A DNA stretch of 64,000 bases from Chloroflexota bacterium (GCA_965218195.1 OZ244593.1:3061413-3125412); one strand, 5' to 3'; counted from the stretch's first letter, positions 29,196-53,006 are shown. Notes: a model not told the origin generated them from the letters alone. Numbers and translations are program-made.

Positions 29196-32027
29196 TTATC
29201 CACCAGCGTCGAGGGACGGAGCGGCGAGCGTGTCGATGTCCACCGCGCGGGAGCGCTCGCTCGTTCCGGCCGCGTTGATCGCCCTGATCCGGTAGCTGTA
29301 GGGCGTCTCCGCCTGCACCGTGGCATCGGTATAGGTGGTGGCCGCAGTCCCGGTGTTCGCCACGAGAATGTGGAATTCGCCCTCGGCATCGGTATCGCGG
29401 TTGCGCCGGAGTATCACGTAGCCGCTGATGGAATCGTCGCCGGGGTCGTCCCAGCCGAGGAGCGCTCCGTTGAAGGCCGCCGCCACTATCAGGCGAGTGG
29501 GCTTGGCGGGCGGCTTCGCAGATGCTTGCGTTTCTTCCCGCTGCTCCTGCTTGCGCTCCACCGGGGTCGTGGTCAGCGCGGCGAGCGTGTCGATGTCCAC
29601 CGCGCGGGAGCGCTCGCTCGTTCCGGCCGCGTTGATCGCCCTGATCCGGTAGCTGTAGGGCGCCTCCGGCTGCACCGTGTCATCGATATAGCTCGTGGCC
29701 GCCGTGCCCGTGTCCGCCACCAGCGTGGTGAACTGGCCGCCGGCATCGGTATCGCGGTTGCGCCGCAGGACCACGTAGCCGGTGATGGAGTTGTCGCCGG
29801 GATCGACCCAGACGAGGATCACTCCGTTGAAGGCCGCCGCCGCCATCAGGCCAGTGGGCTTGGCGGGCGCTTGCGCCTCCAACCGGGGGCTAGTTTGTCC
29901 CCGGCGCTCAACGGACCGCTCCGCAGGTGCTTGCGTTTCTTCCTGCTGCTCCTGCTTGCGCTCCACCGGGGTCGTGGTCAGCGCGGCGGGCGTGCCGATG
30001 TCCACCCCGCGGGAGCGCTCGCTCGTTCCGGCCGCGTTGATCGCCTTGATCGAGTAGGTATAGGGCTTCTCCGCCTGCACCGTGGCATCGGTATAGCTCG
30101 TGGCCGCCGTGCCCGTGTCCGTGTCCGCCACGAGAGTGTGGAATTCGCCCGCGGCGTCGACGCCGCGGACGCGCCTGAGTATCACGTAGCCGGTGATGGT
30201 GCTGTCGCCGGGGTCGTCCCAAGTCAGGGTGACGGCGCCCTGGGACGCCTGGGCCGACAGGCCGGTGGGACTGGCCGGCGGCGAGACGAACCGCACGCTG
30301 CGTGGCTCCGGCACCCGCACCGTCACCGTCGGCAGCGGGTAGTCCTCGAAGTCGTAGTTCGACTGCGCCTGGCTCTGCGAATCCATCGTCGTGCCCGAGG
30401 CCTCGTGGCTCAGCGCCGCCGTCCCGGACGCGGAGGATCGGACGTCCACCGTCACCGTCTGACTCCGGAACCAGTTCTCGCCGGTGAACCGCAGCGTCGC
30501 CGGGGACGCGGTCGCCACGGCCGTGTTAGAAGAGCTCACCCCTATACTCACCGGGTTCGCGGTTGTGGAGTCGGACGCCGCCATCAGGCGCACCTGATAC
30601 GTCGCCGTGCCCCCCGCCGCGACCTCCAGGACCGCGTCGCCCGCGCCGCCCGCCACCTGGAGCTTCCTGCGGCCTTGCCGGTCCACCCGCAGCTCCGTCA
30701 GCGCCGGCAGCGCCTCGAACTCGTCGTAGGGCAGCGACCGCAGCGACGGGTTCTGCTGCAGCCGCAGCGTCGCGAGCGACCGCAGGCCCGCGAACACCCC
30801 GGCCGGCAGCGACCGCAGCCGGTTCTTGTTCAGGTTCAGCGTCTGCAGGCTCGTCAGCCCGCCGAACACCTCGGCCGGCAGCGACCGCAGCCCGGTGTCC
30901 GCGAGGTCCAACTCCTCCAGGTTCAACAGCCCCTCGAAGTCCTGCCGCCGCAGGCTGAGCGTGAACCCCGACTCGGTGGATGGGTTGCGGCGCAGGCCGA
31001 GGAACCTCACCTTCGCCAGATGCGTCTCGTTCACCTCGGCGCAGCCGCCCTTGAATCCGTGCACGTACTTCAGCCGCACCAGGATGCGGTCGCGGACGCG
31101 CGCCGTGCGGTCGCAGATGCCCTGGATGCGGAGCTGGTCGTTGTCGACGATGATGACCCTCGCGTGACACGGGTCGCACGCCGCGCCCTCCGATGACGCC
31201 TGGAACGCGACCACCGGCGACAGTCCGGGATCCTTTTCGAGTTTCAGTTGGATGTACTCGTCCCCCTCGATTTCCAGATCGTCAATTACCGTCAACCGCA
31301 CTTCCTTGCGGGCCGTGAACACCGAGCCGTCCGGTTCGAAGTCCGAAGGGGCGATTTCGACCCCCACGGACAGGCCATCGAAGTCCACATTGCTGGTTGC
31401 CTGGCCTTGTTGGCCGGTTCCCTTGGTGCTGAAGGCTATATGGATGCTCGCAGCGGGCACCGGCACACCGGCCGCCGTCCTGGCGACGATCGCGACAACG
31501 GTGTCGCCGTGCGCGGCGTCCTCGGCGAACCTGTACTCGGGCTGCTCGTGCCACACGGTTACGGCCGGATCGGCCACCAGGACGCCCACGGTCGCCGTAG
31601 CGGGCGTGCCCGCCACGTAGCCCGTCCCGTCCCGCACGGTCGCCGTGATGCTGCCGTTCTGCGTGACCTCGTGGCCGGCAAATTCGTCCCACGCCAACAT
31701 CCTCAGCTCTGCGGTGTCCTGGCCTGCCCCGAAGGTCACGGTTTGCAAAAGCGCCGATCCCTCCAGAAAGTCCCGGTCCTGCGTGAGCACGACGTTGACG
31801 TCCAGCTCCTCCGTGGCGACCGTGCGGGTCAGCGTGAAATCCATGTGGTCAAGCTCCGCGATGATCGTCTGACGGTCCGCCGCGATGGTCACCTCAGGCG
31901 TGGTCTGCGCCGAGACCGGCTTGGCCCCGAAGTGCAGGACCACCGCCAACACGGCGACCGGTAGGGCCAGCGCCGCTATGGCGGCGAGCAGGATGGGGAA
32001 TCGTCGTCTAGCGGTGCGAGTCATCAT
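29196..32027 (-). CDS. Secreted/surface protein (943 aa) with a signal peptide, a central LRR block and three C-terminal tandem fibronectin-III-like repeats.
   Basis: The N-terminus is MMTRTARRRFPILLAAIAALALPVAVLA. LRRs follow (L..L.L..N.L.SLP...F.GL). There are three repeats of about 120 aa (...TGY.V.RR.R..DA.G.F..LV..T.T.AT.Y.D.TV...PY.Y.I.A.NAAGTSERSR.V). Confidence 0.75.
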   Translation of the reverse strand: MMTRTARRRFPILLAAIAALALPVAVLAVVLHFGAKPVSAQTTPEVTIAADRQTIIAELDHMDFTLTRTVATEELDVNVVLTQDRDFLEGSALLQTVTFGAGQDTAELRMLAWDEFAGHEVTQNGSITATVRDGTGYVAGTPATATVGVLVADPAVTVWHEQPEYRFAEDAAHGDTVVAIVARTAAGVPVPAASIHIAFSTKGTGQQGQATSNVDFDGLSVGVEIAPSDFEPDGSVFTARKEVRLTVIDDLEIEGDEYIQLKLEKDPGLSPVVAFQASSEGAACDPCHARVIIVDNDQLRIQGICDRTARVRDRILVRLKYVHGFKGGCAEVNETHLAKVRFLGLRRNPSTESGFTLSLRRQDFEGLLNLEELDLADTGLRSLPAEVFGGLTSLQTLNLNKNRLRSLPAGVFAGLRSLATLRLQQNPSLRSLPYDEFEALPALTELRVDRQGRRKLQVAGGAGDAVLEVAAGGTATYQVRLMAASDSTTANPVSIGVSSSNTAVATASPATLRFTGENWFRSQTVTVDVRSSASGTAALSHEASGTTMDSQSQAQSNYDFEDYPLPTVTVRVPEPRSVRFVSPPASPTGLSAQASQGAVTLTWDDPGDSTITGYVILRRVRGVDAAGEFHTLVADTDTGTAATSYTDATVQAEKPYTYSIKAINAAGTSERSRGVDIGTPAALTTTPVERKQEQQEETQAPAERSVERRGQTSPRLEAQAPAKPTGLMAAAAFNGVILVWVDPGDNSITGYVVLRRNRDTDAGGQFTTLVADTGTAATSYIDDTVQPEAPYSYRIRAINAAGTSERSRAVDIDTLAALTTTPVERKQEQREETQASAKPPAKPTRLIVAAAFNGALLGWDDPGDDSISGYVILRRNRDTDAEGEFHILVANTGTAATTYTDATVQAETPYSYRIRAINAAGTSERSRAVDIDTLAAPSLDAGG
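29200..30320 (-). repeat. Three tandem DNA repeats of about 360-400 bp, highly similar at nucleotide level, encoding the Fn3-like modules.
   Basis: The near-identical stretch GAGCGTGTCGATGTCCACCGCGCGGGAGCGCTCGCTCGTTCCGGCCGCGTTGATCGCCCTGATCCGGTAGCTGTAGGGCG recurs at about 29226, 29582 and 29990. Confidence 0.8.
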
Positions 32028-32580: not shown

Positions 32581-33531
32581 TTGTCGGGCCTGCCCCCGCT
32601 TGAGAGCCTGCGCTTCTTCGAGGCCGCGGCCCGCCATGAGAGCTTCGCGCGCGCCGCGGCCGAGCTGGGTGTCACGGCGGCGGCCGTCGCCTACCACGTC
32701 CGCGCCCTCGAAGCGCACCTCGACGCCCCGCTCTTCGAACGCAGGCAAAGGGGCGTGCTGCTCAACCCGCGGGGCCAGGCCCACCTCAAGGAGATACAGC
32801 ACATACTGGCCGAAGTCCACGGCGTCTCCGAGCGCCACCGCCGCCAGCCGCGGCGCGTCCGGATCATCTCGGTGGAGGCGGTCGCCGAGAAGTGGCTGGT
32901 GCCGAGGCTGGCGGCTCTCGAGACGACCCATCCCGGCATCGCCATCGAGCTGGAGACCGACCACCGCGGTGTCGACCCCGGCAGCCGCGACTTCGACGCC
33001 TGGATCGCCTACACCGGCGCGACCGCGGCGCCGCGCCCGGTGACGCGGCGCGCGGACACGCTGATCGAGGAGACGCTCTACGAGGAGCAGCTGCTGCCGG
33101 TGTGCAGCCCGGCCCTGCTGGCGGCGCGCGGGCAGCCCCGCGGCCCGGCCGAGCTGGACGGCTGGCCCCTGCTCTACGACCTGGGCTGGGACACCGACTG
33201 GGCGTACTGGTCGGCCTGCCAGAACCAGCCTGCACCGGACCTCTCGCGGTCCTCGGGCTTCCGCCTGTACAGCATGCTGGTCAACGCTGCCGTCCAGGGG
33301 CTCGGGGTCGCCATCGGGCGTCCGGCGCTGATAGCGGACGAGCTCGCGACCCGGCTGCTGGTCCCCGTGCTGGACCAGCAGGCCGACGCCCCCGAGCGCT
33401 GCTGCCTTATCACCACCGCGGGCTCGCGGCGCAAACCCGAAGTCCAGGCATTCCGCCGATGGATCCTGCGACAGGCCCAATCGCCCGCGCATCCAGGCCG
33501 TCCGCCACGTGACGACAGCCCGAGTCTGTAA
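32581..33531 (+). CDS. LysR-family transcriptional regulator.
   Basis: It has the N-terminal wHTH LESLRFFEAAARHESFARAAAELGVTAAAVAYHVRALE and a substrate-binding-domain length. The true start may lie a little upstream. Confidence 0.8.
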   Translation: MSGLPPLESLRFFEAAARHESFARAAAELGVTAAAVAYHVRALEAHLDAPLFERRQRGVLLNPRGQAHLKEIQHILAEVHGVSERHRRQPRRVRIISVEAVAEKWLVPRLAALETTHPGIAIELETDHRGVDPGSRDFDAWIAYTGATAAPRPVTRRADTLIEETLYEEQLLPVCSPALLAARGQPRGPAELDGWPLLYDLGWDTDWAYWSACQNQPAPDLSRSSGFRLYSMLVNAAVQGLGVAIGRPALIADELATRLLVPVLDQQADAPERCCLITTAGSRRKPEVQAFRRWILRQAQSPAHPGRPPRDDSPSL

Positions 33532-33939: not shown

Positions 33940-36900
33940 TCAGGCCTCATTCTGTGGTGGTGGCACGTCTTCGATCACCACAAGTCCGCCATCACTTCCG
34001 CTCCTCGGAGAGTCAGGGAAGGGGGCGTCGTGCTGAACGTCGTCATCCCAGTATCCGTACCGCGCTGCCAATAGTCGTTCGATCGCGGGCATATCCGGAG
34101 TGTTCTGTTGGCACTCCAATCCCCAGTGGTTCAGTAGCGCCATCATGGCGAGTTGCCTATGGCGGTTCATTGCATCGGGCGTGAATGCGCCAATGGGAAC
34201 CGGCTCGGCGGTCGCACTCTCTGCGCGGAACCCCGCTTGGATCATCTCGCTCTGGGTTGCCTTTGAGGGCGGATTGAAGCCGTCTTCTGGAAATCGGTAA
34301 TTCATTGCGATGTTGAAGATGGCAGTCAAGATGTGCCAGTCAAGCCAACCCTTCGAGCGGAGTGAATCCGCGGTGGGCCGAAATTGCTCTGAGGATCCGA
34401 GCATCACGACTGTGAGTCGAAGGCTCTTGGCAAGATTCAGGTAGCGCGTGTGGAGCAGTTCCTCGGCCCTGTCTCGCGAATATGTAGGGCCTAGTCCATC
34501 CTGCCAACGAAGTTCATCGTGCGCCTTATACGTCCCTTCACGGCAGTCCCATGGAGTGCTGAATTGGCGTCCCCGAATCTCTGTCTCTGTGTCCGCGGCG
34601 AACGCGGCAGCGAGCTGGTCGTGTGGCCGTCCCGGTGAGAGCTTGTGCCTCAATCCACGCTCAAAGGCTCGCTCTATCCTCGCCGAAAAGTCGGCTTCCG
34701 GAAGAAGCGAGGCTTCGCGGAGGATCGTCGTGAGCATCGTCAATAGTTCAATGCCGATTTCATCGGGGGACGGGTCGTCATAGACGCTGATAGGTTCGAG
34801 TCGGACCACCCACTCTCGGCCGTCGTTGCTTGGAAGCCACTCAATCTGCTCCGCAACACCCGTGGAGGGTCGCCGCCTGCTCTCAATGCGTACGTTGATT
34901 TGAGTTTGAAGCAAGCACAGGTCGTCTCGCCCAAGTGCCGCAAGCATCACTTGGGCGGCGGCGGCGAATCGCTCGGCCACACGTACGGAGTCAACGTCGT
35001 TGGCCGCGACCAGAGTCCAATCAGTGCCCAAGGCGGAGAAGCGAATGCACCGAACGTCACCAAGGTCGGCGAATGGCCGGGCAACAAGTCCGATGTCGCC
35101 GAAAGACTCCCAGAAGTCCTTGTCGTTCGCATCCAGCGCATCGATTGCGCCTTCGATGATTTCCTCCGTCCCTATTCGAGTTATCGTTGCGCCGATCAAC
35201 GCAGCTAAGTCAGAATCGACAATCCTGGCACATGCACTGACGTAGGCGAGATTCATTACGGCGTCTTCAACCTCTGGGTGTCTCTCGGAATCGATGCCGT
35301 CCTCGATGAGCTCGTGCTGCGCCACCAGCCCTAGCTCATACAGCTCCGTTGCAGTACACCAGGCACCCGCAGCGAAGTCGGCACAGGCTGCCATGTGCAG
35401 ACCGGCGGGAACCAGGTCCATAAGCTCCTCGTCGGCTCTTGATGCAGCGATGTACGCAACCGCCAGAGCATAGGACTTCGACGCCTGAGGGAGCCATAGC
35501 TCAAGGTAGAGCCTCGCAATGATGATCATTGCGAGCAGCGATCCACGAACGGTTTCTCCCGACCACCAGTCGATCTTCGCCCGGTGGAGTTCCTCCAATG
35601 CATCGAGGCGACGTCCAGCCCGAAGTAACTTCATCGACCGGTCCCGTGCGCGAGCTGCGAGAGCGTTCTTCCCTGATCGCTCACCTACGGCCTCATCGAC
35701 CAGATCAAGCAACTCTCGCCACTCAGCCTGATTGCTCCAAAGCGGGACCAGCATCTGAAGAAGATCTGCCAAGCTCTGAATGGGGAAGAGTGGCGTTTCC
35801 TCAAGGTTTTCCATCAATTCCGTCCATGCTGAGAGCGCCCGTGACACATCGGTAAGTACGAGATCGTCCGGCAATGAAACATCAGGCAAAGTAGACGGCT
35901 CGCCACCTTGATCCCGGTGTTCCAGCACGTGCGCTTCGTCACTCCAGTCCCGAAAGTCGGCTTCCGTCAGTGCAGGATGCAGACCAAGAAACCCGAGGGT
36001 ATAGAGGAGACTTGCTCGACGATGCGGCGTCTCATGGGTAATGAGAACCTGTATCCGGCTCGTCAGACGATCGTTCCAATCGCTGAGTTCAGCCGAGGTG
36101 AGCGAAGACATTCCTGCTCGAACTGCGCCATTTGCGTACATGAGGAGGGTGCCTGCATCGTCCAGACGGGCGGGCTCGCTCTCGGTCAGCGACTTATCGA
36201 GATACTCACGTGCTACATCGTCGACTGGCCGGAAGTCGCCTGTACCGCGTAACGTGGTTACCACCAGTTCGTATCGCGCGCGCTGTTGGATGTGAGTGGG
36301 CAGTTCTGGGATTGTCAAGAGTTGCCGTACAAGTCCGAGCCAAAAGGGGAGGTCGGCACGCGCCGTCTGGTGAAAGACTGCCTTTCGAAGACCGGTCTTC
36401 AAGTCGACAAAGTCGCCGAGAGTGGGACTTGGAAAGCTTCTCTCACGCCATCTGCGCCTCCGCTCTACATACTCGGCTGCAAGATCATCATCGATGGCAG
36501 GTGCTTCTGGCCGAATTTCGGCCGGAACTGAAAGGAATCGCTCTGCAATCCAGAAGCCCTCGGGTCGCGCGAGAAGATTGGCGATGGATTCAGCATCGTG
36601 AAACTCGAGACGACCTTCGTACGATGCTTGAGTCTCGGTCTCCAGCTTGTGTCGAGTTCCCACCGGAACCGACTCCAGCGTAAACGCGCGAATCTCGTGA
36701 ACAGGGTGTCCGGAAGCGCAGACCTTCTTGATGTCCAGCCTGAGCTTCGCGAGCAGATCGTCCGCTTGGATAGTGCAAATGAAGGCGATCGTTCCTTCAC
36801 TGACCAATCCCAGGAACGCCCCGTGCGGACCGAGCTCTTCGCGCAGATAAGTGCGGAATGTTTCAAAGTCACGCCCTTGATCGCCCCCCGCAGACACGGG

Positions 36901-37044
36901 GCCAGTAGCAGGCAAGACGTTCGTGCAGATGAACTGCTGCGTCAGGTGTCGGCAGATGTGCTCGAATTCGTGATGGGCATTGTGAACGGGCAACTGGGAA
37001 AGAGCAAAGCGGACCTGAGCCTCGACCTCTGAAGGGCTGGCCAT
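33940..37044 (-). CDS. Large (1034 aa), mostly alpha-helical hypothetical protein with no recognisable catalytic motif. Candidate defence-island component.
   Basis: It is a long ORF with consistent codon usage. It is divergently arranged with the 715-aa nuclease-like gene. The N-terminus has an ...GGDQGRDFETF...IAFICTIQADD... segment, which is a possible but unproven nuclease-like core. Confidence 0.6.
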   Translation of the reverse strand: MASPSEVEAQVRFALSQLPVHNAHHEFEHICRHLTQQFICTNVLPATGPVSAGGDQGRDFETFRTYLREELGPHGAFLGLVSEGTIAFICTIQADDLLAKLRLDIKKVCASGHPVHEIRAFTLESVPVGTRHKLETETQASYEGRLEFHDAESIANLLARPEGFWIAERFLSVPAEIRPEAPAIDDDLAAEYVERRRRWRERSFPSPTLGDFVDLKTGLRKAVFHQTARADLPFWLGLVRQLLTIPELPTHIQQRARYELVVTTLRGTGDFRPVDDVAREYLDKSLTESEPARLDDAGTLLMYANGAVRAGMSSLTSAELSDWNDRLTSRIQVLITHETPHRRASLLYTLGFLGLHPALTEADFRDWSDEAHVLEHRDQGGEPSTLPDVSLPDDLVLTDVSRALSAWTELMENLEETPLFPIQSLADLLQMLVPLWSNQAEWRELLDLVDEAVGERSGKNALAARARDRSMKLLRAGRRLDALEELHRAKIDWWSGETVRGSLLAMIIIARLYLELWLPQASKSYALAVAYIAASRADEELMDLVPAGLHMAACADFAAGAWCTATELYELGLVAQHELIEDGIDSERHPEVEDAVMNLAYVSACARIVDSDLAALIGATITRIGTEEIIEGAIDALDANDKDFWESFGDIGLVARPFADLGDVRCIRFSALGTDWTLVAANDVDSVRVAERFAAAAQVMLAALGRDDLCLLQTQINVRIESRRRPSTGVAEQIEWLPSNDGREWVVRLEPISVYDDPSPDEIGIELLTMLTTILREASLLPEADFSARIERAFERGLRHKLSPGRPHDQLAAAFAADTETEIRGRQFSTPWDCREGTYKAHDELRWQDGLGPTYSRDRAEELLHTRYLNLAKSLRLTVVMLGSSEQFRPTADSLRSKGWLDWHILTAIFNIAMNYRFPEDGFNPPSKATQSEMIQAGFRAESATAEPVPIGAFTPDAMNRHRQLAMMALLNHWGLECQQNTPDMPAIERLLAARYGYWDDDVQHDAPFPDSPRSGSDGGLVVIEDVPPPQNEA

Positions 37045-37623
37045 TCAATCTCCTCGCACCCAATGATTCACGCCCCTATCTGCCGAAAGCATCGTACAAG
37101 AAGCCTGGGCGAGAGTCTCTCTCCCGCGAGGAGCAGGGCCTGCTGAACAACTCATCGTCGCTGACAGGCAGGCAGAGGCTCTTGGATTCTCTGGCCGTGT
37201 CAGTGAAATGCTGATGTCCAATTCCCCCGTCGTAGAGCGGAGGACGAGTTCAGATTCTCATCTGACCAAGCACATTCTTCCGGCTGTTTCGTTGAGCGAG
37301 TCCGATCGACACAGCGCTTTTGGCGAGCCGAGGCTCCATCGAAAATGCGAATTGAGCGGCAGGGGCGCGGTTACGATCGCGTCGTACAGACGCGATCGCC
37401 CATCCGAGTCGTTGCTAGGCTGACAGAGCACACAGCTCCTTGCACTGTAGTCCGCCCTTCCCTTCGACCATCCTGGTTTCCGAATCCATCCGGCCGCACC
37501 CGGGACCCGATTAGCGAGTAGTGCTATCCCTGGTACGAGTAAGGTCAACCTACACCCTCGTAAACTAGATTTCACGATCCCAGCCATCGAGACCACCAGG
37601 ACACGCTCCGAAGCACGCCCAGA

Positions 37624-39771
37624 GTGAAGCCCAGCACGAAGTCGCGCGAGTGCGCTAGGCGAGACATTGTGTGCGCCCTAGAAGATTTAACGGAGCAGGA
37701 TGGGTTCATATATGCGTTCTGCTTTCTAGTCTTTGAAAGCCTCTGGATTCCACCAGACGCGGTTGCAGATGTCGACTGGTACGAACGTCCCAACAAGGAG
37801 GAACTCTCCTTTCTATTGGGACTTATGGTCAAGCAGCCTATCCGTCTGAATCTCCCGGAAACCGAAGAATCGGTTCAATATCAGCGCAAAGCTGCGCGGC
37901 GCCTATTGAATGAACTCCACGAATCGTACTCGCCGCAGCGTTCGAGCTTTTCGGACTTCGAGGGGAATAACAGCGACCTGACTGCGAACGCCGCCCAAGC
38001 AGTACAAAACTTCCGCGCAAGTGGAGACCACACAGTGGAAGGGGCGTTCTATTCCGGTTCCGGCGCTTTCGACTTCCAATACCTCGACCTCGCAGCCAAA
38101 AGATACCTTCGTGACAGCGCTTGGATGGAGCAACACCTCGGTACGAGCGTGGAGTCAATCATCGAGATTTCTAGGCTCGTGAAGGAGCTACTCAATAGCC
38201 GCATGGTCGACCGCCGAGTACCAGCGACATTCGAAGAGGCGTGCCGCAGAGCTCTTTCGATTCTGTGCATTACCCCTGACGATCTCCCAGCAGCTGACCG
38301 TGGGTCGTTCAACGCCTTGATTGAGCACTTCGCCCTCACGCCCGGCTGCGTCAACTCAGGCCTCGACAGTCTAGGGGCATACAATCAAGCGCTCTCACAC
38401 CCTCTAATACGGCTCTCGCCAGACAGATACTTTCTGCCGATCTACCAAAACCTTCCCTGCTCAATCTATGAGAGTCCCTTCTACTGGATGCTGCAGAACC
38501 CACGTTATAAGGACGAGGGCCTCAAAAACCGGGGAGACGCCACCGAAGAGCTTGCATACGACATGCTGTCGCGCGTATTCGGAGATCAGGCAGTTTTCCG
38601 TGGAGTAGCGGTCTGCAGGGGCGGCCAACGAGTGACCGACATCGACGTTCTCGCGTTCGCAGGAAACAAGGCCATCGTTGTGCAAGCGAAGTCCAAGAAG
38701 ATGACGGAACTATCACGAAGAGGCGACGAGAACAGCGTTCGACGCGATTTTCGCGAGGCAATTCAGCAGGCGTACGACCAAGGGGTTGTCAGTAGGTCAG
38801 CGTTACTTGACGGGGACCACGCGTTCATAGACGAGCGTGGGCAACCTGTCCTCGTCAATCACAAGATCGACGACGCCTACATCCTCTGCCTGACGGGCGA
38901 CTATTACCCAGCCGTCACGGTCCAAGTCGATATTCATCTTCAGAAGCAGGCTCAAGATCCGTACCCAATTGCGTTGAGCATCTTTGACTTGCAGGTCCTT
39001 TGCTTCTACCTAGACGACCCATTCGACTTGCTGTACTACCTGCGTCAGCGTTCGCTTCATGCATCCCATTTTCACTCGGCCTCGGAGATGGCAATGCTGG
39101 GCTTTCATCTGCGCCAGAAGCTCTACCCGAATGCAAAGGTTAGTGGGATGTTCATAGCTTCGGACTACGCCCAGCTGATCGACGAGCACTATCCAATAGC
39201 AACCGGGCACTATCCGATAGCGGATGTTCCGGATCGGCTCCGTCATCAATGGAGAAATGACGAGTTTGAGCGACTAGTCGCTGATGTAAAGTCTTCCCCG
39301 GCTGCGGAACGAACAGATGCGCTGTTTTTCCTATTCGACTTGGCAGGCCCCGGAGCAGACGAACTGTTTGACTTCATTTCAGCGACGAAGCGGAAGACTC
39401 GTCGTGATGGTCGAATACACGATGCATCACTCCCTATGATGACTGGGGATAAGGGGGTTACGTTTGTTTGCTATCCGTCGATAGCCACCGATGTCTGGGC
39501 GCGGCTGCAAGCACATGCAATTGCGCGCAAATACAAGAGTCGCGCAAATGAGTGGTTAGGGCTCGGTTCGTTTGCTGGTAGCGACCGGATGGTGGACATG
39601 GTGTGGTACAGCAAAGAATCGTGGCGTCGAGATCTAGAACTGGAAGCTCTCTTAGCGCAAGGATTTCTTTCGTCTGGAACGTTTGTGAAGGGCAGAAGAA
39701 GGAAGATTGGCAGAAATGAACGCTGCTTTTGTGGAAGCGGGCTCAAATTCAAGAGATGTCACGGCGCATAA
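37624..39771 (+). CDS. Hypothetical protein (up to 715 aa) with a NERD/PD-(D/E)xK-like nuclease core and a C-terminal SEC-C metal-binding motif.
   Basis: The core reads ...ATEELAYDMLSRVFGDQAVFRGVAVCRGGQRVTDIDVLAFAGNKAIVVQAKSKK... (E...D-I-D...Q-A-K). The C-terminus reads RNERCFCGSGLKFKRCHGA. The GC is lower than that of its neighbours. The start is uncertain. Confidence 0.6.
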   Translation: MKPSTKSRECARRDIVCALEDLTEQDGFIYAFCFLVFESLWIPPDAVADVDWYERPNKEELSFLLGLMVKQPIRLNLPETEESVQYQRKAARRLLNELHESYSPQRSSFSDFEGNNSDLTANAAQAVQNFRASGDHTVEGAFYSGSGAFDFQYLDLAAKRYLRDSAWMEQHLGTSVESIIEISRLVKELLNSRMVDRRVPATFEEACRRALSILCITPDDLPAADRGSFNALIEHFALTPGCVNSGLDSLGAYNQALSHPLIRLSPDRYFLPIYQNLPCSIYESPFYWMLQNPRYKDEGLKNRGDATEELAYDMLSRVFGDQAVFRGVAVCRGGQRVTDIDVLAFAGNKAIVVQAKSKKMTELSRRGDENSVRRDFREAIQQAYDQGVVSRSALLDGDHAFIDERGQPVLVNHKIDDAYILCLTGDYYPAVTVQVDIHLQKQAQDPYPIALSIFDLQVLCFYLDDPFDLLYYLRQRSLHASHFHSASEMAMLGFHLRQKLYPNAKVSGMFIASDYAQLIDEHYPIATGHYPIADVPDRLRHQWRNDEFERLVADVKSSPAAERTDALFFLFDLAGPGADELFDFISATKRKTRRDGRIHDASLPMMTGDKGVTFVCYPSIATDVWARLQAHAIARKYKSRANEWLGLGSFAGSDRMVDMVWYSKESWRRDLELEALLAQGFLSSGTFVKGRRRKIGRNERCFCGSGLKFKRCHGA

Positions 39772-43107: not shown

Positions 43108-43567
43108 ATGACAACAAACGATCGCATCATTCTCGATCAGGTTCTCGGCCAACGTCGGAGCGAAGTTGACCCAGATGCGGACGACAGTTCTTTTTTCGAG
43201 TTCTTCACCGCAGAGCAGGTTCTGAAGGATTTCGATCTCTCGTATGACGAGATAGAGTCTGGCTTGGTCGGCGACGGGGGCGATGGCGGGATAGACGCGA
43301 TATATCTGCTAGTGAATGGTGGCCTAGTTCAAGAGGACCCGGATTATGGCCGCCTGAGAAAGGACATTGCCATCGATCTGATCATCCTGCAGTCGAAGAT
43401 GCGCGCCGGGTTCCAAGAAACTCCAATCGAACGCTTTCTTACAGTCAGTAGCAACCTTTTTGACCTTTCAACAGAAGCTTCAACTCTTTCCGGCGTTTAC
43501 AATGAACGCCTTATAGAGTCAATGCAGCGTTTTCACGGCCTCTATCAAAAACTCGCCGCTTCGTTTC
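43108..43567 (+). pseudogene. N-terminal about 150 aa of an AIPR-family (abortive infection phage resistance) protein, truncated by IS3 copy 2.
   Basis: DRIILDQVL...SSFFEFFTAEQVLKDFDLSYDEIESGLVGDGGDGGIDAIYLLVNGGLVQEDPD...IDLIILQSK matches the AIPR N-terminal pattern. The ORF runs straight into the IS end at 43568. Only about 400 bp remain beyond the IS. Confidence 0.55.
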
Positions 43568-44768
43568 TGACCCTGCCCCCAACTTACCCTCACTCATAAG
43601 TAGAATCTTTTCAGGTTATGGCCCCAATTGGGGCGGGCTGCAAACTGGTTGGGTGTGAGCCCATCCAGGCTCGTGTGCGGGCGTGTTGTGTTGTAGTCGT
43701 ACCTCCATTCCGCGATGATCCGCCGCGCTTCGGCCAGGCCGGCGAAGAGATGTTGGTTGAGGCACTCGTCGCGCAGGCGGCCGTTGAAGCTCTCGACAAA
43801 GCCGTTTTGCATGGGCTTGCCCGGTGCGATGTAGTGCCAGCCAACGCCGCGTTCCTGCTGCCAGCGCAGGATAGCGTTTGAGGTGAGCTCGGTGCCGTTG
43901 TCGCTGACCAGCATGCGGGGGCGGCCCCGCAGCTCGACGATGCGGTCCAGCTCCCGAGCCACGCGGACGCCAGACAGCGATGTGTCGACGACGAGGGCGA
44001 GGCACTCGCGGCTGAAGTCGTCCACCACCGCCAGGATGCGGAACCGCCTGCCGTCGGCCAATGCATCCGCGACGAAATCGAGCGACCAGCGCTGGTTGCG
44101 GTTCCAGGGGAGCAGCAGCGGGGCACGCGTGCCGAGCGCCCGCTTGCGCCCGCCTCGCTTGCGCACCGTGAGCCGTTCCTCGCGATAGATGCGATAGAGC
44201 TTTTTATGATTGAGCCGGATGCCTTCCCTGGCCAGCAGGATGTGCAGACGGCGGTAGCCGAACCGTCGGCGCTGCTCGGCCAATTCCCGCAACCGCTTGC
44301 GGATGCCGGCGTCGTCCGGCCGCCTCGATTCATAGCGCTAAGTCTTCGGATCCATCCCGACAAGAGCGCAGGCACGGCGCTGCGAGTGACTAGTCTCCGT
44401 CATCGCCCAGGCCGCGGCCTTCCTCCGCAATCTGGGCGTTAGAAGTTTTTTGCAAGTAGCTCGCGCAGCGTCGCCACATCCAGCATCGATTCCGCCAGCA
44501 GCTTCTTCAGGCGCCGGTTCTCATCCTCCAGCCCCTTCAGCTTCCTGGCGTCTGATACCTCCATGCCGCCGTACTTGGACCGCCACTTGTAAAACGTCGC
44601 GCCGCTGACCCCGTACTTGCGGCAGAGCTCTGCGGCTGGCAACCCCGCCTGCTGCTCTTTGAGGATGCCGATGATCTGTTCCTCGCGTTACCTGCTCCGT
44701 CTCATGTCCGTCTCCTCCCATTGAACGGACTCTACTCAAAATCGAGGGCATTTTCGGGGGCAAGGTCA
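43568..44768 (-). mobile_element. IS3-family element copy 2 (1201 bp, about 98-99% identical to copy 1), inactivated by two nonsense mutations.
   Basis: The ends are the same as copy 1. orfA has TAT to TAA (..SR*R.. at 44685 region; copy 1 has SRYR). orfB has TAC to TAG (KT*R at 44330 region; copy 1 has KTYR). No target-site duplication is visible. Confidence 0.8.
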
Positions 44769-45163: not shown

Positions 45164-47989
45164 TTACAAACGCCGGTTAGACACCACGGGTTCTGAGGCT
45201 AAGAGGTCGCGGAGCTTGCTCAGATTGGGCAGTGCCAGGATTTCGGAGATTCCGTCGTCCAAGGACTGCCGCGCCGGGCAATGCGCCATACCCGGCAGGC
45301 GTTCGAACTCGGCTTCAGCCAGTTGGTCGAACAGGTCCGACAGGCCGTGAAGCCGTGAGGTCGAAATTTCCCGCAGGTCCAGGACGGGCAGTTCTGAGAG
45401 ATCGGCCTTTTTCATGGCGACCCAGCCGCCTTCCGTGCTGGTCCGCTGGGCCAGAATGGTCAACAGGCCAAGGCTGGAATTCAGCCAAACCGCCAGCGCC
45501 TTCTCATGCGATACGACTTCAACCCGGACGGGCCACCAGACGTTTGAAAGGACTCGCATTTTGGACTTCATGGCGACGACTCTGGCGGTGTCGAGCCGCA
45601 GCCGTTCGGCGACGAGGAGTCGACCGGATTGCCGCCAGAGGCGTTCACCGTAACCTGGCTTTTGTCCGCCTTTTGGCCGTATCAATGGTGACAGATAAAC
45701 GTCAGGTGAGCATATGAGAGACCTCCGTTGCTCCGTATCGTGTCCCTCGACCATCGGGTAAGCAGTCGGAGAACTGGTCCTACTATATCCGTCGACGAGC
45801 CGACGTCTGTCGGGGCCGATTTGACCGAGCTCACCGAGCCGGTACAGCGCAATGTTGGCGGTATCTTCCTCACCCGGTACCCACACTACGCCGTCGTCGA
45901 GCAGGCTGAGGGCGCAGCGGGTTACATCGGCGCGAGCGAACTGCACGCCTGACCATTTCTTTCCCGCGAACTTCGATTCGGGAATCGAAACCATTTCGCC
46001 GACGTGCCGGCCGTCCACTTCCAGCAGCGCCGCGCCCGTTCCCTCGAGATTCGCCGGCGTCGTGGTGGCGATGGCCTGAGCCATCCCGGGCACATCCGAC
46101 ACGCCGTCCGGGTTCCGCCAGAGGTTGACGAAGGTGCTGCGACGCTCAACATTGACGTGTTTCTCAGGGCGGCGCGTAGCAATAAGCAGCGCCTCGGAGA
46201 GGTCGGTGCTGTCCGAAAAGTTCCAGCGCAGCGGATCGTGCGACGTAATCACCATGTCGAGGGCGAAGTCATGCTCGATTAGGGCGCGCGTCTGCCGCCA
46301 CGAGGGGCCGGTACATACGGTGGCGGGCAGCACCAGCGCCAGGCGTCCCTCGCCGGGCCGCAGCCTGGGGACCGCCGCCGCAACGAATGCGGCGCCGAGT
46401 CCGGCGGTGGCTGATGCCTGCCTTGATCTAAGGCGACGCGACAGCTCGCTTTGAAGTTTTCGCCGGTCCGCTGCGGGCAGGCTGCCGAACAGCAGGTTGC
46501 CGCCCACGGAGCGCGTGAATGGCGGGTTCATTATCGCCAGGTCCAAGTCCGGCAGCGTGGCGGTCGCACCCTCTTCCACACCCCGAGAACCGCCGCCGGA
46601 CACCCTTCCGGGTTCCCTGGTGGCTACTCGCATCTCCTCGGCGGACAGCGCGAATTGCACCGGTACGTGGGTCTCTCCCAGGAATTCCAGCGAGCCCAGA
46701 GACACCTTCGAGCCTTCAGCCCCCAGGGGCATTACGTAGAGATTCATGCGGTCGAACTGTATGTCCGGGTTCAGCATCGCCAGGCTGGTGGCGGCGAAAT
46801 GTACGGCGGAAAGCTGAACGTCGTAGCCGTGCAGGGCCTGCTCCACCATGGCTTTGTGCAGCTCGGGGGCGTTTTGGCCGCCGGCGTCGGAGTGCCGGCG
46901 CTCGACCTCGGCGGCCACCGCCATCAGCAAGGTTCCAGTGCCGCAAGCCAGGTCGGCCACGTTGAGGGATGCCGGAAATTCGTGGTCGCTCCAGTCGACG
47001 TGCGAGGGCCAGTCGTGAAACACCAGCCGGGAAAGCAGCGTGGCCGCCGGCACCGACGTGTAATAGGCGCCGGTGAACTTGGCGTCGGTCAAGAGCGTAT
47101 GGAACAGCCGCCCGGATAAATCGTGCCCCGCCAAATGACGCGTGTCTTCCATAGCCCTGACCAACGGTACGATGACCGGCGTCCGGATCTCGTCCGGCCC
47201 GTCGCCGAGCACGTCAAGGATGTTGGACGCCAACTCGAAGACCGGCACGTAGTCGATGTCGTCGCAGATGGAGCGCCAGGCCCAACGGAGTCCGGGAAGG
47301 CCATGCCCCAACGCTTCGCCGACGGTCGGAACGTCCTCATTAGCGGCGGCGAGACGGTCCTGGAAAGCGAGAGCGTTGAAGAGCACCAAACACCCGATGC
47401 GCAGGGCCGCGGCGCGGTCCCTTTCGTGATCGGTGCTGGCGATAATGTCGGCGATGCGACGGGATATCCGGGCGTGTTTGGCTATTTGTTGCGCCGCCTG
47501 TTCCAGCCCGTACCCAACGGCGGTGGCGGCGGCCACCACCCGGTCCACGCCTTCCAGTTCCAATAGAAGGGTACGCAGGTGATCGGCAAGCTCGGCTGCC
47601 GACCCTCGCCGGACGCGGCGCTCTGGCGCAATCCCGCCACGAGAGCCATGCAGCCACCATTGGAGGTCAGTGGCGGCCTCGAGGTTCGAGCGTGTGTTCT
47701 CCGTGTACTTGAGCCTGTCGGGATAGAGAACGCCAATCATTCCAAGAGCTTCGGGGAAATCTTGCAGACGTTCTTCGAGCTGCTCTTCCAGGAGGCTCGC
47801 CGCCCCCTCCCACTTGCATTCCAGGATGACTAGGTCGCCGCTTCGCAGCTCGACCCGGACATCGGGCGCGCCCTTCCGGCTGCGGCGCTCCCCCCTGGCC
47901 GATATGCCGCGCTCACGGAGCAACTCGGCTAGAAGGACATTTACGCCTTCCTCACGAATAGTTTCGGGATCGCTCTGTCGAGTGGCCAT
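45164..47989 (-). CDS. Fused restriction-modification-type protein (941 aa): an N-terminal PD-(D/E)xK nuclease motif plus a gamma-class N6-adenine DNA methyltransferase (type IIG-like).
   Basis: The nuclease core is GAPDVRVELRSGDLVILECKWEG (D...E-C-K). MTase motif I is VADLACGTGTLL. Motif IV is IMNPPFTRS. The long C-terminal region is a presumed target-recognition domain. Confidence 0.7.
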   Translation of the reverse strand: MATRQSDPETIREEGVNVLLAELLRERGISARGERRSRKGAPDVRVELRSGDLVILECKWEGAASLLEEQLEERLQDFPEALGMIGVLYPDRLKYTENTRSNLEAATDLQWWLHGSRGGIAPERRVRRGSAAELADHLRTLLLELEGVDRVVAAATAVGYGLEQAAQQIAKHARISRRIADIIASTDHERDRAAALRIGCLVLFNALAFQDRLAAANEDVPTVGEALGHGLPGLRWAWRSICDDIDYVPVFELASNILDVLGDGPDEIRTPVIVPLVRAMEDTRHLAGHDLSGRLFHTLLTDAKFTGAYYTSVPAATLLSRLVFHDWPSHVDWSDHEFPASLNVADLACGTGTLLMAVAAEVERRHSDAGGQNAPELHKAMVEQALHGYDVQLSAVHFAATSLAMLNPDIQFDRMNLYVMPLGAEGSKVSLGSLEFLGETHVPVQFALSAEEMRVATREPGRVSGGGSRGVEEGATATLPDLDLAIMNPPFTRSVGGNLLFGSLPAADRRKLQSELSRRLRSRQASATAGLGAAFVAAAVPRLRPGEGRLALVLPATVCTGPSWRQTRALIEHDFALDMVITSHDPLRWNFSDSTDLSEALLIATRRPEKHVNVERRSTFVNLWRNPDGVSDVPGMAQAIATTTPANLEGTGAALLEVDGRHVGEMVSIPESKFAGKKWSGVQFARADVTRCALSLLDDGVVWVPGEEDTANIALYRLGELGQIGPDRRRLVDGYSRTSSPTAYPMVEGHDTEQRRSLICSPDVYLSPLIRPKGGQKPGYGERLWRQSGRLLVAERLRLDTARVVAMKSKMRVLSNVWWPVRVEVVSHEKALAVWLNSSLGLLTILAQRTSTEGGWVAMKKADLSELPVLDLREISTSRLHGLSDLFDQLAEAEFERLPGMAHCPARQSLDDGISEILALPNLSKLRDLLASEPVVSNRRL

Positions 47990-49441: not shown

Positions 49442-50671
49442 TCAGGCGGCGGCCCGCACCGCCTTCGCCTCGTCCCGCAGTCGCTTCACCCTTTCGGCTA
49501 AGTCGCGGACTCGATCTAGAACCTCGTCGAGCCTCCCCGTCAGATCGAGCGCCGCTACGTCCAGCCGCTTGTTGGAGTGCCTGACACGGTAGGTGCCCTC
49601 GTTCGCCTCGCCCTGAGCGTAGATCAGCAGTCCGCCCGGCAAATCTAGCGCGGTGACGTATGCGAGAAGCTGGTACAAGTCCGTGTTGGGCACTCTCTCG
49701 CTGGTGATGTTCTTGTATTTAGCGTCCCCCACGAATAGGCAGGATCGTCCGTCCCACCAGGTCAGGTCGGGCCTGAGTCGTATGCCGTCCTCCTTATCGA
49801 GACTGTCTATGGCCTTCTCGAGGAACACGCGGTCGGAGACTTGCAACGCCTCCCGCAGCGCCTGTGTCACGAACTCCTGGAAGACGTCGTTCATGTCCAT
49901 CAGGAACCCGGATGCACGCACCTCACCACGACCGGACTCATACGCGCTGTGCCGCAACACGAGCCGCGACAGCGCCACCACCTCGCGATAGTGCCCGTTC
50001 AGTCGGTCGAATCGGACCTCCGGCAACGCGTTAGGCGCAAACTCGACCAGCGAGACGTTGGCGAGCATCCCCGCAATCCGCCCCAGCTCTTTCCGCGCCG
50101 CAGGCGATCGCAGCCGCATCCGGCCCAGCCGGTAGACCGCCGCCTTCACCAGCCGGTTCGCCAGGACGTCGTCCGTGAACTCGTCGTACCTCACTTCGAC
50201 CGGCACCGCGATGCCGAATCTCCGCCGTATCTGCTCGTCGAACCTGATCCGACCGCGTACGGTTTGCAGAGCCTCCTCCTCCACAACGTATCCGTGCAAA
50301 AGCCCGCGCGAGAACGCCCTTCTGGCGGCGGAGACAAGCGCAAGCGCCAGCACATCCGGCATTGCATATTCACGCGGGTAGTCGAACTGTTGGCGCTGAG
50401 GCTTGAACTTACTCATCGCGTAGCACGCAAGCGAGAGCAGCTGTGGAATCTCGATCTTTGGCTCGATCAGCACCGACAGGTCGCCAATCTCGATCGCGCC
50501 CACGGTCGAACCGGGAGTCACTTGGTAGGCTCCCTCCTTGCCCACGACGGGCTGGATTGTGAGAGATGGCAACGCCTGCAGCAGCACATCGTGCTCGGCG
50601 ACCGCGAGCTCATGCTCGCTGGTGGCGTACTCCTTCAGGTCGATTTCACGCATCGGTCGGGCCGTCGTCAT
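49442..50671 (-). CDS. McrC-like PD-(D/E)xK endonuclease subunit (pair 1).
   Basis: It is 409 aa with the motif LFVGDAKYK (D-x-K-Y-K, typical of McrC). It sits immediately downstream of, and overlapping, the McrB-like gene. Confidence 0.75.
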   Translation of the reverse strand: MTTARPMREIDLKEYATSEHELAVAEHDVLLQALPSLTIQPVVGKEGAYQVTPGSTVGAIEIGDLSVLIEPKIEIPQLLSLACYAMSKFKPQRQQFDYPREYAMPDVLALALVSAARRAFSRGLLHGYVVEEEALQTVRGRIRFDEQIRRRFGIAVPVEVRYDEFTDDVLANRLVKAAVYRLGRMRLRSPAARKELGRIAGMLANVSLVEFAPNALPEVRFDRLNGHYREVVALSRLVLRHSAYESGRGEVRASGFLMDMNDVFQEFVTQALREALQVSDRVFLEKAIDSLDKEDGIRLRPDLTWWDGRSCLFVGDAKYKNITSERVPNTDLYQLLAYVTALDLPGGLLIYAQGEANEGTYRVRHSNKRLDVAALDLTGRLDEVLDRVRDLAERVKRLRDEAKAVRAAA

Positions 50672-53006
50672 CGGCTCTGTCGGTATCGCCTGCTTCCCAT
50701 AGCTTTTCGAGGTCGAACTCGCCGAGGCGGTCGCCTTGCCCGAAGAGCAGCTCCTCGATGTACGGAAGCACGCTGTGCTTCCAGATGCGCCTGACGGCGT
50801 CCTCGTCCAGGTCCTCCTTCATGAAGTAGCTCGGCCCTATCGCGGCGTGCCGGTCGTCCCTCAACTTCTCGTTGGCTCGGTCTACGACATCGGCCACCCA
50901 CGCCATGCCCGGCGCCTTCTCCCTCAGCCAGCGCCGTAGCACCCCTTTGATGGGTTCCTCGTCCGGGTGGAACTCGACGAAGTTGAATCGGCGACGCAGC
51001 GCCAGATCGACCAGCGCGATCGAGCGGTCGGCCGTGTTCATCGTGCCGATGATGTAAAGGTTGTCCGGCAGCTCGAAAGTCTCCCCACTGTTCCTCTGGT
51101 ATTGGAGGCGTATCGCTTCGTCACGGTACTCCAGCAGGAAATACAGTTCCCCGAACACCTTGGCGACGTTGCCGCGATTGATCTCGTCGATCAGGAGGAA
51201 ATGCCTCTCGTCCGGCTCTCCCCGTGCACGCCTGCCGGCCTCAAGCAGCGGCCCGTCCGTCAGCTCGAACCCGGGCTGACCGCCTCTCAGTGTGGGGCGG
51301 AAGCCCTGCACGAAGTCTTCGTAAGCATAGGATGGATGTAACTGCACGAGATCGACCCGATCGTCCGCTCCCGCGAGATGCCTCGCTAACTTCCGCGCAA
51401 CATAGGTCTTGCCCGTTCCAGGCGGTCCCTGGAAGATGACCTGCTTCTTGTCCTCCAGCAGTTTCTCGATGTTCCCAAGGAAGTCCGCGGTGAGATGGAG
51501 TTCAGCCGCTAGCGCATCGAGGTCATCGGGCGGTGGGGGAGGCGGTGAAATGATGGTCCCTGGCATTCCCCAGACCACGGACTGCGCGTCAAGTCGATGG
51601 CGTAGCTCAAGCCCCCGCTCAGCCGCCTCGTCGATGAAGCGGTCGAGGAATATGAGCGCATGCTCGTAGACGGCAGCCTCGTCCGCCTCGCCCTCGGGTC
51701 GACGGTATTCCGTGCTGTCGTATGCCTTGTTGAACACGCCAACCCGGTACGGCGGAAACTGCTCGACGTCCAGCCCCATCAGCAGCACCGAAATCAAATT
51801 CGTGCGGTTCCCGGTCGCGCCTCTCAACGCAGAGCGTGGGACCCCGCTGCTGAAGCCGCGAATCCGTTCCGTGATCGTCGAGTCGTCTCGCGACCACAAC
51901 GCCTCGAGCTCGCTCAAGGCTTGTTCCGAATAGTCAGCGCACCACCGCGTGAAATCACTCTGAAGCTGCCAGGCAATGGGGTGGCCCGGTCTGGTCTTCA
52001 GCGCGCGCTTCAACACCTCCGGCCAGTCTTCGGCGCGGGAGACAACGGCATTACGCGCAGAGGCGAGGTCCCGACCCATTTCAAGCTTGTAGCCGATCTC
52101 CTCAATCTCCATTCGACCGGAGTCGACGTAGCTCCTTGCACGCTCGACAAACTGATCCCAAGGGTCGGATGTCGAAGACCGCCAACGCTTCGATACCTCG
52201 CCGTCGTCGTAGAAGTCGAAATCCCTGCCTAGCTCGTCCTCAAGCCCTCGACGTATCTGTACCAGTTTGCGGTCAGGGTCCTCGGTCGGCTCTCTAACGA
52301 GATACGCGAATCTCTCGGTGATCTTGTTCTTGTGGTCGCCGCTCAGGATTGCCTCGAACGTGTCGCCGTGGACGAGATGCAGTAGTGTCGCTCGCGCAAC
52401 GGCGCGGCTGTTCCGGGGACCGGTCCGCAGCGGGCCGCGCCAATCCACATCCATGACGAACTTCTTGAACTCCCAAGCAGCTTCCGGGTCCCCGGAGTCG
52501 AGCAAGCGCTCGACCGGCCCTCGCTCCTTCCACTGCTCCACGAACTCGATCAAGTAGCCAGGCAGAAGTCCGGGACTCTGACTGAAATGTCGATTTGCAC
52601 TGACGAGGCCGGGTCTAAGGCCGTCGACGCAGTCATCCGGTATTGCCATAGGTAGCGGCGACCATCCCAGCACCCGTTCGATTTCTTGCCTCTTCCATGT
52701 GCCTTTGGCGGCTTGCCGAGCAACGAGATAGGAGGCGTAAAGAACTTCTCCCATCAACTGGTAGACCTCGGCTGGACTGCCTGTCAATAGCCGCTCCAAG
52801 CTCGCAAAGAACGCGTGCTTCGATTGTCCGTTCCACTCTCCCGGTCTATCCAAAAACCGCCCGCGCAACTCACTGAGCCACTGCCTCGACCAGATCGGTT
52901 CCCCCACCGTGAAGAGCGAGTCGTCGGATCTCAACGCGCGGTCGACCCATGTGCTCGCGGCAGCGTAGACCGTCTCTCGCCCGCCTCCAGTCTTTCTGCC
53001 ACTCAC
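50646..53006 (-). CDS. McrB-like AAA+ GTPase (786 aa) with an about 480-aa N-terminal domain of unknown type (pair 1).
   Basis: It has QVIFQGPPGTGKTYVA (P-loop), LLIDEINRGNVAKVFGEL, and NLYIIGTMNTADRSIALVDLALRRRF (the McrB signature MNTADRS plus the sensor). Confidence 0.8.
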   Translation of the reverse strand: MSGRKTGGGRETVYAAASTWVDRALRSDDSLFTVGEPIWSRQWLSELRGRFLDRPGEWNGQSKHAFFASLERLLTGSPAEVYQLMGEVLYASYLVARQAAKGTWKRQEIERVLGWSPLPMAIPDDCVDGLRPGLVSANRHFSQSPGLLPGYLIEFVEQWKERGPVERLLDSGDPEAAWEFKKFVMDVDWRGPLRTGPRNSRAVARATLLHLVHGDTFEAILSGDHKNKITERFAYLVREPTEDPDRKLVQIRRGLEDELGRDFDFYDDGEVSKRWRSSTSDPWDQFVERARSYVDSGRMEIEEIGYKLEMGRDLASARNAVVSRAEDWPEVLKRALKTRPGHPIAWQLQSDFTRWCADYSEQALSELEALWSRDDSTITERIRGFSSGVPRSALRGATGNRTNLISVLLMGLDVEQFPPYRVGVFNKAYDSTEYRRPEGEADEAAVYEHALIFLDRFIDEAAERGLELRHRLDAQSVVWGMPGTIISPPPPPPDDLDALAAELHLTADFLGNIEKLLEDKKQVIFQGPPGTGKTYVARKLARHLAGADDRVDLVQLHPSYAYEDFVQGFRPTLRGGQPGFELTDGPLLEAGRRARGEPDERHFLLIDEINRGNVAKVFGELYFLLEYRDEAIRLQYQRNSGETFELPDNLYIIGTMNTADRSIALVDLALRRRFNFVEFHPDEEPIKGVLRRWLREKAPGMAWVADVVDRANEKLRDDRHAAIGPSYFMKEDLDEDAVRRIWKHSVLPYIEELLFGQGDRLGEFDLEKLWEAGDTDRADDDGPTDA

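Follow-up and report, generated by a model that had tools for sequence, protein, structure and literature searches.

The locus described here raises the question of whether two large genes that point away from each other in a bacterial genome form one defence system or are independent neighbours. The genes lie in a stretch of 64,000 nucleotides from a Chloroflexota bacterium (GCA_965218195.1 OZ244593.1:3061413-3125412; the whole stretch is referred to as the window) and are called gene A, which encodes 1034 amino acids, and gene B, which encodes 715 amino acids (Table 1). An initial interpretation made from the DNA alone (the sequence-only reading) had proposed that A, a large helical sensor or scaffold protein, and B, a nuclease-like effector, constitute a single antiphage system. 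Both open reading frames (ORFs) were recovered with the lengths and positions given there, in divergent orientation and separated by an intergenic gap of 579 bp (37045-37623). The GTG start called for B aligned to an ATG in a homologue with 77% identity, and homologues of 715 amino acids covered 100% of the B query. The comparison reported below showed that A and B are independent of each other and that neither has a conserved partner. We therefore regard the locus, with reasonable though far from complete confidence, as two independent single-gene cassettes standing back to back in a fluid, defence-rich region of a Chloroflexota genome; A and B each remain plausible as a candidate defence gene that works alone.

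Independence of A and B

For the comparison of gene neighbourhoods 80 loci were fetched from genomes for the A family and 80 from metagenomes for the B family, with flanks of up to 10 kb, and both proteins were searched against all fetched loci using tblastn. The comparison comprised 83 A loci and 87 B loci; among the loci lacking the pair, more than 3 kb of sequence was available on the relevant side for 72 of 79 in the A family and 46 of 83 in the B family. Outside the window A and B were neighbours in one relative only, the Chloroflexota metagenome-assembled genome (MAG) OZ253578.1 (loci L001 and L008), with a DNA identity of 94%, and tblastn found no A-B adjacency in the approximately 160 other loci of the two families. 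The next-closest homologues, at 86% identity for A and at 80% and 77% for B, stood without the partner. The sequence-only reading had itself proposed a search for the pair in other genomes and had staked the two-gene system on the outcome; since the co-occurrence is limited to one near-identical relative, the two-gene hypothesis fails by the standard that had been set for it in advance, and A plus B as a conserved pair was rejected.

The boundary between the two genes was located by means of two further loci. At a locus with A only (L176) the match to the window spans A together with approximately 500 bp upstream of it and ends at about 37545, where an IS3 element starts, and at a locus with B only (L175) the similarity to the window begins at about 37545 and continues onward from there. 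Because the A-only and B-only homologies abut at this point, the apparent pair is best described as two cassettes side by side. The non-coding part of the gap on the A side of the junction travels with A, and between 37170 and 37545 it is 98-99% identical among the window, OZ253578.1 and L176, compared with 90.5-93.5% for the A coding sequence. A search of the spacer against Rfam returned no match at the gathering score or at E ≤ 1, and RNA folding z-scores of -0.36 and -0.40 gave no folding signal. Two candidate elements in the spacer were rejected: an ORF of 112 amino acids (37258-37596, minus strand), which has a non-coding-like GC (guanine plus cytosine) distribution over codon positions and few substitutions that are not biased to third positions, and a 10-bp palindrome (37374-37398), which is not kept in the relatives.

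There is one form in which a joint system might still be upheld, namely as a lineage-specific pair with A as sensor or scaffold and B as nuclease effector, recently assembled in this Chloroflexota lineage and mobilised together. Such a pair would agree with the finding that A, B and the spacer lie in one 6.17-kb block that is 94% identical in the two genomes and has sharp ends, and with the identity of the 579-bp spacer between the window and OZ253578.1 (98.1%), which is above that of either coding sequence; the divergent layout would moreover permit shared regulation. We nevertheless consider it highly improbable, given that no co-occurrence was seen in the other loci of either family, that the next-closest homologues stand alone, that the conserved spacer remains with A where B is absent and the homologies abut within it, and that both families are otherwise solitary. 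No terminal repeats or att-like sites were found at the ends of the block. Its identity is mosaic, ranging from 81 to 100% per 200 nucleotides (for instance 100% at 34154-34353, 86% at 34954-35353 and 81% at 37954-38153), and the substitutions in A between the window and the OZ253578.1 block amount to 52 at first, 46 at second and 103 at third codon positions. This pattern suggests that alleles have recombined and that parts of both genes evolve fast at the protein level.

A conserved third partner of A or of B was likewise rejected, as clustering of the neighbouring ORFs gave none; the largest cluster comprised 6 of 81 A loci and 4 of 79 B loci. One A homologue is placed between the gene of a CitMHS transporter and RidA/aminotransferase genes, and another shares a mobile island with GmrSD, a PLD-helicase, an integrase and MmeI-type restriction-modification (RM) genes. 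B homologues were found, with A absent, beside SIR2, an AbiEii-like ATPase, Hachiman, XhoI RM genes and PIN toxins. On two related Agrobacterium pAt plasmids, NZ_CP133675.1 (L168) and NZ_CP042276.1 (L169), an integrase gene is 95% identical and the cargo beyond it is wholly different: on one plasmid an A homologue accompanies PIN, an S8 peptidase and a Ser/Thr kinase, and on the other a B homologue is found with PLD, an AAA protein and an HxsABC radical-SAM system. The variable region next to the integrase thus holds a homologue of one of the two genes and in neither plasmid of both, and looks like an integrase-adjacent defence hotspot.

Domain architecture of the two proteins

For B, the sequence-only reading had proposed a NERD/PD-(D/E)xK-like nuclease with a SEC-C tail, and this assignment was upheld by the Pfam search for SEC-C, by NERD matches across the family and by the core of the AlphaFold model. 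The motifs of B are E308, T338-DIDVLAF, IVVQAKS at residues 351-357 and CFCGSGLKFKRCHG at residues 701-714. In Pfam, SEC-C (PF02810) was matched at residues 697-714 with 34 bits (cut-off 20.4) and NERD (PF08378) at residues 304-386 with 16.9 bits (cut-off 22.1), and B is thus a borderline case for Pfam NERD. The family search retrieved 305 homologues, mostly of 700-730 amino acids and bearing SEC-C. Among 31 members, NERD was matched in 30 at E ≤ 1 (best E-value 4.9e-6) and Card1_endonuc in 6; NERD is also listed in the precomputed Pfam annotation of several homologues, and plasmid-borne relatives are named in RefSeq after SEC-C or as "NERD domain-containing" or "nuclease-related domain-containing" proteins. 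E308, D341, Q354 and K356 as well as the SEC-C cysteines C701, C703 and C712 are invariant among members with 40-80% identity.

A profile of the 31 members searched against the PDB matched the zinc-binding C-terminal peptides of YchJ and SecA (E-values 6e-8 to 1e-7). The AlphaFold model of B has a mean predicted local distance difference test score (pLDDT) of 87 and a predicted template modelling (pTM) score of 0.87, and its core (residues 296-424) shows the order alpha-beta-beta-beta-alpha-beta and contains E308, D341, Q354 and K356. The best PDB match found by Foldseek was the cryo-EM structure of the defence protein Upx (E-value 2.3e-4, 435 columns, template modelling (TM) score 0.30), which was the only Foldseek alignment longer than the nuclease core. 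A PADLOC search, another check that had been suggested, matched parts of B and of the 31 members, namely the SEC-C stretches of the E2 and PDC-S12 models and the nuclease cores of the CARF_PDDEXK and NERD models. By core topology and residues B belongs to the PD-(D/E)xK superfamily, with predicted nuclease activity, and its SEC-C motif is genuine.

The defence role, trigger and substrate that we infer for B would be as follows. B would act as a self-contained and presumably metal-dependent sensor-nuclease in the manner of Upx, in which the flanking domains hold the nuclease inactive until an invader-derived cue is perceived; B would then cut DNA. Docking or regulation that depends on zinc or iron would be the part of its SEC-C tail.

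A B homologue on the Salmonella enterica IncFIB plasmid CP053577.1 (L177, 8001-10066) was matched in two pieces with no annotated coding sequence, and is probably a pseudogene. It adjoins a phage-type integrase, VapBC, DUF4365, NUDIX and a nucleotidyltransferase.

A belongs, as a stand-alone gene, to a large family of proteins of approximately 1000 amino acids that carries no annotation. A word-indexed search retrieved 599 homologues, all full length, and HMMER, run over all 1.84 billion cluster representatives at E ≤ 1e-3, retrieved 2126 representatives of 50%-identity clusters, nearly all of about 1000 amino acids and aligned end to end. A gave no match in Pfam, NCBIfam or PADLOC, and neither did 30 or 41 further family members searched. 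The description of A as a large protein of mainly helical structure and with no ATPase agreed with these results and with the AlphaFold model: a Walker A motif was present in none of 73 aligned family sequences (31 in alignment A1, 42 in alignment A3), and STAND, NACHT and AAA profiles matched neither A nor the family members.

The most conserved part of A is its N-terminal domain. Across 42 sequences with 28-67% identity N22, E28, G48, P49, G54, D55, D59, C90, K100, D104 and D150 are invariant within residues 1-150, and together they look like an active site. Among all fetched loci, matches of a hidden Markov model (HMM) of this domain were confined to A-family genes. A sister clade on Hymenobacter plasmids (15 matches, 1090-1249 amino acids) shares the C-terminal module of A, of approximately 820 residues: columns 191-1013 of alignment A3 matched residues 271-1095 of the Hymenobacter protein with an hhalign probability of 100%. 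Residues 20-168 of the latter are a Cap4_nuclease domain (33.8 bits, cut-off 26.2), so that the N-terminal domain of A occupies the position of the nuclease effector of its relatives. In the Pfam search Cap4_nuclease (PF14130) was matched neither in A nor in 30 homologues. With hhalign, the head of A gave a probability below 1% against the Cap4 head and a negative result against the nuclease core of B; since the positive control, Cap4 versus NERD, also failed, these tests have little power and are uninformative. The PADLOC model Aga_REase-TIR, a REase-TIR protein model associated with short pAgo, was matched faintly in 2 of 42 A members (E-value 0.0015).

Directly upstream of the Cap4-headed relatives lies a conserved hypothetical gene of 416 amino acids (L170, 4081-5331; L172, 2807-4057; both on Hymenobacter plasmids), which had no match in Pfam and in L172 overlaps the Cap4-headed gene. 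It may be a partner within this sister clade; no equivalent was found beside A.

Because the sister clade has a Cap4 double-stranded DNA nuclease at exactly this position, the N-terminal domain of A (with E28, D55, D59, K100, D104 and D150) would be its effector, probably a nuclease-like hydrolase. A as a whole would then be a sensor-effector without a nucleoside triphosphatase (NTPase), in which the tetratricopeptide repeat (TPR)-like solenoid and the C-terminal module bind or sense. A could instead be a decayed or non-enzymatic relative of the nuclease-headed proteins, with the N-terminal domain as a binding or oligomerisation module through which a target is sequestered. That no nuclease profile matches the domain, that a canonical (D/E)xK triad is not evident and that AlphaFold failed to fold residues 1-84 are consistent with this explanation, which we find improbable all the same: eleven invariant residues in the first 150, among them four Asp, one Glu and one Lys, fit an active site better than decay, and the faint Aga_REase-TIR match also speaks against it.

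Genomic surroundings, distribution and possible roles

Table 1. Coordinates of the genes, protein domains, shared segments and neighbouring features in the window (positions are counted from its first nucleotide; a dot marks features to which no strand applies).
Feature	Position	Strand	Remarks
Gene A	33940-37044	-	ORF call; 1034 amino acids, ATG start
A residues 1-185, most conserved domain; putative catalytic or effector head	36490-37044	-	42-sequence alignment
A residues ~190-640, all-helical TPR-like solenoid; putative sensor or scaffold	35125-36477	-	
A residues ~664-780, small alpha/beta domain	34705-35055	-	AlphaFold and alignment; conserved F658, D660, G673, W676, E691, Q698
A residues ~783-1034, helical C-terminal region	33943-34698	-	AlphaFold and alignment; conserved motif RYGYWxDDVxHxDPF
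Gene B	37624-39771	+	ORF call; 715 amino acids, GTG start
B residues 1-295, helical N-terminal domain	37624-38508	+	AlphaFold model
B residues 296-424, PD-(D/E)xK (NERD-type) nuclease core	38509-38895	+	
B residues 425-690, mixed alpha/beta C-terminal region	38896-39693	+	AlphaFold model
B residues 697-714, SEC-C zinc-binding motif	39712-39765	+	C701, C703, C712, H713; Pfam, PDB profile search
Block shared with OZ253578.1 (L001 7119-13289)	33754-39926	.	6.17 kb, 94% DNA identity; sharp ends, unrelated flanks
Non-coding stretch travelling with A	37045-37545	.	96-98% identical in three genomes, above A coding sequence
Junction of A cassette and B cassette	37540-37550	.	Homology ends of L176 and L175
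MmeI-like RM gene	17837-20674		Next genes: DUF4238, Schlafen AlbA_2
FN3/LRR protein, secreted-type	29196-32027	-	943 amino acids; leucine-rich repeats and three fibronectin type III domains; local GC 66-71%
LysR gene	32581-33531		
Amidohydrolase and transposase fragments	40.7-42.6 kb		
ORF of 163 amino acids with GDGGDGGIDA motif	43108-43599	+	Truncated by IS3
IS3 transposase	43594-44292		
Two tandem McrB (AAA_5)-McrC pairs	49442-56989	-	Duplicated type IV restriction module

The GC content of both genes (A 0.58, B 0.54) is below the window mean of 0.61 and the 0.69-0.71 of the left flank, so that the lower GC noted for B by the sequence-only reading holds, and holds for A as well. Its account of the surrounding island stood as to the LysR gene, the insertion sequence (IS) debris, one RM gene (MmeI-like) and the two McrBC pairs. 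The ORF of 163 amino acids that it had named an AIPR remnant had no match in Pfam. The GDGGDGGIDA motif of this ORF is similar to the GGDQGRD loop of A across 16 residues only, a GGDxGxD match to the N-terminal domain with a probability of 2.9%. This match and the faint one to Aga_REase-TIR were all that was found in the direction of an Mrr-like restriction endonuclease head, and we do not call A Mrr-like. A further large ORF, of 941 amino acids (45164-47989, minus strand), separates IS3 from the McrBC pairs; it has a coding-like GC distribution over codon positions and no match in Pfam. Landmark searches for tRNA genes, promoters and terminators at the locus yielded nothing informative. Eukaryote-like repeat proteins such as the FN3/LRR protein are typical of sponge symbionts, and names of sponge symbionts (e.g., Poriferisodalis) are present among the MAGs of the A family; the genome probably comes from a sponge symbiont.

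Members of the A family were found in Chloroflexota, Actinomycetota, Acidobacteriota, Pseudomonadota, Bacteroidota, Parcubacteria, Methanosarcina, Methanobacteriaceae and Bathyarchaeia, and members of the B family in Chloroflexota, Paceibacterota, Nitrospirota, Pseudomonadota, Bacteroidota and cyanobacteria. Plasmid records were matched 11 times by A and 36 times by B, and a phage origin was rejected, with no match of either protein among 50,697 phage records. Both families show the distribution of accessory genes that are horizontally transferred and sporadic across phyla. The commonest Pfam families in 127 ORFs flanking A homologues were N6_Mtase, DDE transposase, ResIII, DEAD, SWI2/SNF2, Schlafen AlbA_2, HSDR_N, PIN, Replic_Relax and AbiEii-type AAA_21. 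The neighbours of B were genes of RM and abortive infection (Abi) type mixed with housekeeping genes, and the annotated plasmid contexts included CHAT, HEPN, restriction endonuclease, AbiE, HipA, VapBC and PDDEXK genes.

Several observations weigh against the reading of the locus as two independent single-gene defence cassettes. In two genomes A and B do move together, in a 6.2-kb block with sharp boundaries. Residues 1-84 of A, part of its putative effector, were modelled by AlphaFold with a pLDDT below 50, and a PDB profile search with the N-terminal domain gave no match. PADLOC-DB v2.0.0 contained no model that matched A or B as a whole protein. The defence-gene company of both genes is an association and not a proof, as it derives from raw neighbour counts, and some homologues of A and of B sit among metabolic or housekeeping genes.

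On the last points one could also build the case that neither gene is immune in function and that both are accessory to mobile elements or to the host, B being a nuclease of recombination, repair or plasmid maintenance with a generic metal-binding SEC-C, and A a regulator or scaffold of TPR type. Besides the metabolic and housekeeping neighbours and the want of a fitting defence model, SEC-C is found in the non-immune proteins SecA, YecA and YchJ, and TPR solenoids are generic. We rate this explanation as a minority possibility that deserves to be taken seriously. It has to contend with the sporadic occurrence of both families across many phyla and on plasmids without phage copies, with the recurrent RM, toxin-antitoxin (TA), Abi, Hachiman and SIR2 neighbours, and with the appearance of A and B as alternative cargo at the same integrase-adjacent hotspot. 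The swap of a nuclease head in A, as in modular immune proteins, the defence protein Upx as best Foldseek match of B in the PDB, and the mosaic identity of the block with its many substitutions at first and second codon positions likewise count against it.

We therefore retain the reading as two single-gene defence cassettes. A more far-reaching proposal, which we put forward tentatively and would rate clearly below an even chance, is that the A family represents new and widespread single-protein immune receptors that lack an NTPase and in which the TPR-like and C-terminal sensor module drives interchangeable heads (a novel catalytic domain in most members, Cap4 in the sister clade), and the B family a compact Upx-like sensor-nuclease in which SEC-C links activation to a cellular partner. 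The immediate gain is that a false two-gene system is taken off the list of candidates and two cleaner single-gene candidates are entered instead. If A is immune, receptors of the sensor-effector type with swappable heads can work without the STAND NTPase switch, and a very large unannotated family acquires a function. If B is immune, the Upx-type strategy in which one protein both senses and cuts extends to a smaller architecture, and the SEC-C metal knuckle has its first role on a nuclease, for which, to our knowledge, no role is known. Neither outcome would overturn current concepts, since many such candidate families exist.

Comparison with known systems

The nearest functional parallel to B is Upx, a single-protein PD-(D/E)xK defence system (PMC13099982, PMC13601566) that senses the phage terminase and requires its ExK nuclease (PMC13601566, PMC13099982). 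Upx has approximately 1200-1270 amino acids; its canonical nuclease forms the very C-terminal end, and its N-terminal domain contains another nuclease, of atypical kind. B, in contrast, has 715 amino acids with a central nuclease and SEC-C at the end; the TM-score of the structural match is as low as 0.30, and none of 31 B-family members matched a Upx model in PADLOC. Because size, domain order and model matches differ, B is not a member of the Upx family. With NERD proteins (PF08378) and nucleases of the Can2/Card1 type B shares the core fold and the E...D...(Q/E)xK residues. In contrast to NERD proteins of the Nhi type it lacks both a CARF sensor and a helicase, and its N- and C-terminal domains, like the SEC-C tail, are particular to its family.

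The SEC-C tail of B has the same CxC...C(H/C) zinc or iron knuckle as the C-terminal tail of SecA, YecA and YchJ. In SecA the motif docks SecB and ribosomes (bioRxiv 10.1101/613315), and it occurs in SecA, YecA and YchJ, which are non-immune (bioRxiv 10.1101/613315; PMC13377102). That a protein bearing SEC-C can give phage resistance is known from Rugutis, a lactococcal antiphage protein (PMC11381338). Rugutis has 359 amino acids, carries SEC-C at the N-terminus and contains no recognisable nuclease; it is otherwise unrelated to B. It was the only antiphage protein with SEC-C found in the literature search, which returned no paper joining SEC-C, NERD and phage.

A resembles Avs and other NLR-like STAND sensors in having a conserved N-terminal domain followed by long helical repeats, and also in being a single, sporadic and island-associated gene whose head is exchangeable with Cap4 in the sister clade. 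It differs from them in having no P-loop NTPase, residues 190-640 being helical throughout, and because it has no NTPase A is not a STAND/Avs protein. The closest comparison is with the Cap4-headed Hymenobacter relatives, annotated as "dsDNA nuclease domain-containing protein" (WP_139926185.1), which are solitary plasmid genes beside HipA TA modules and are themselves uncharacterised. A has the large C-terminal module in common with them, and its own N-terminal domain stands in place of their Cap4_nuclease; A is a relative of the Cap4-headed proteins and not one of them.

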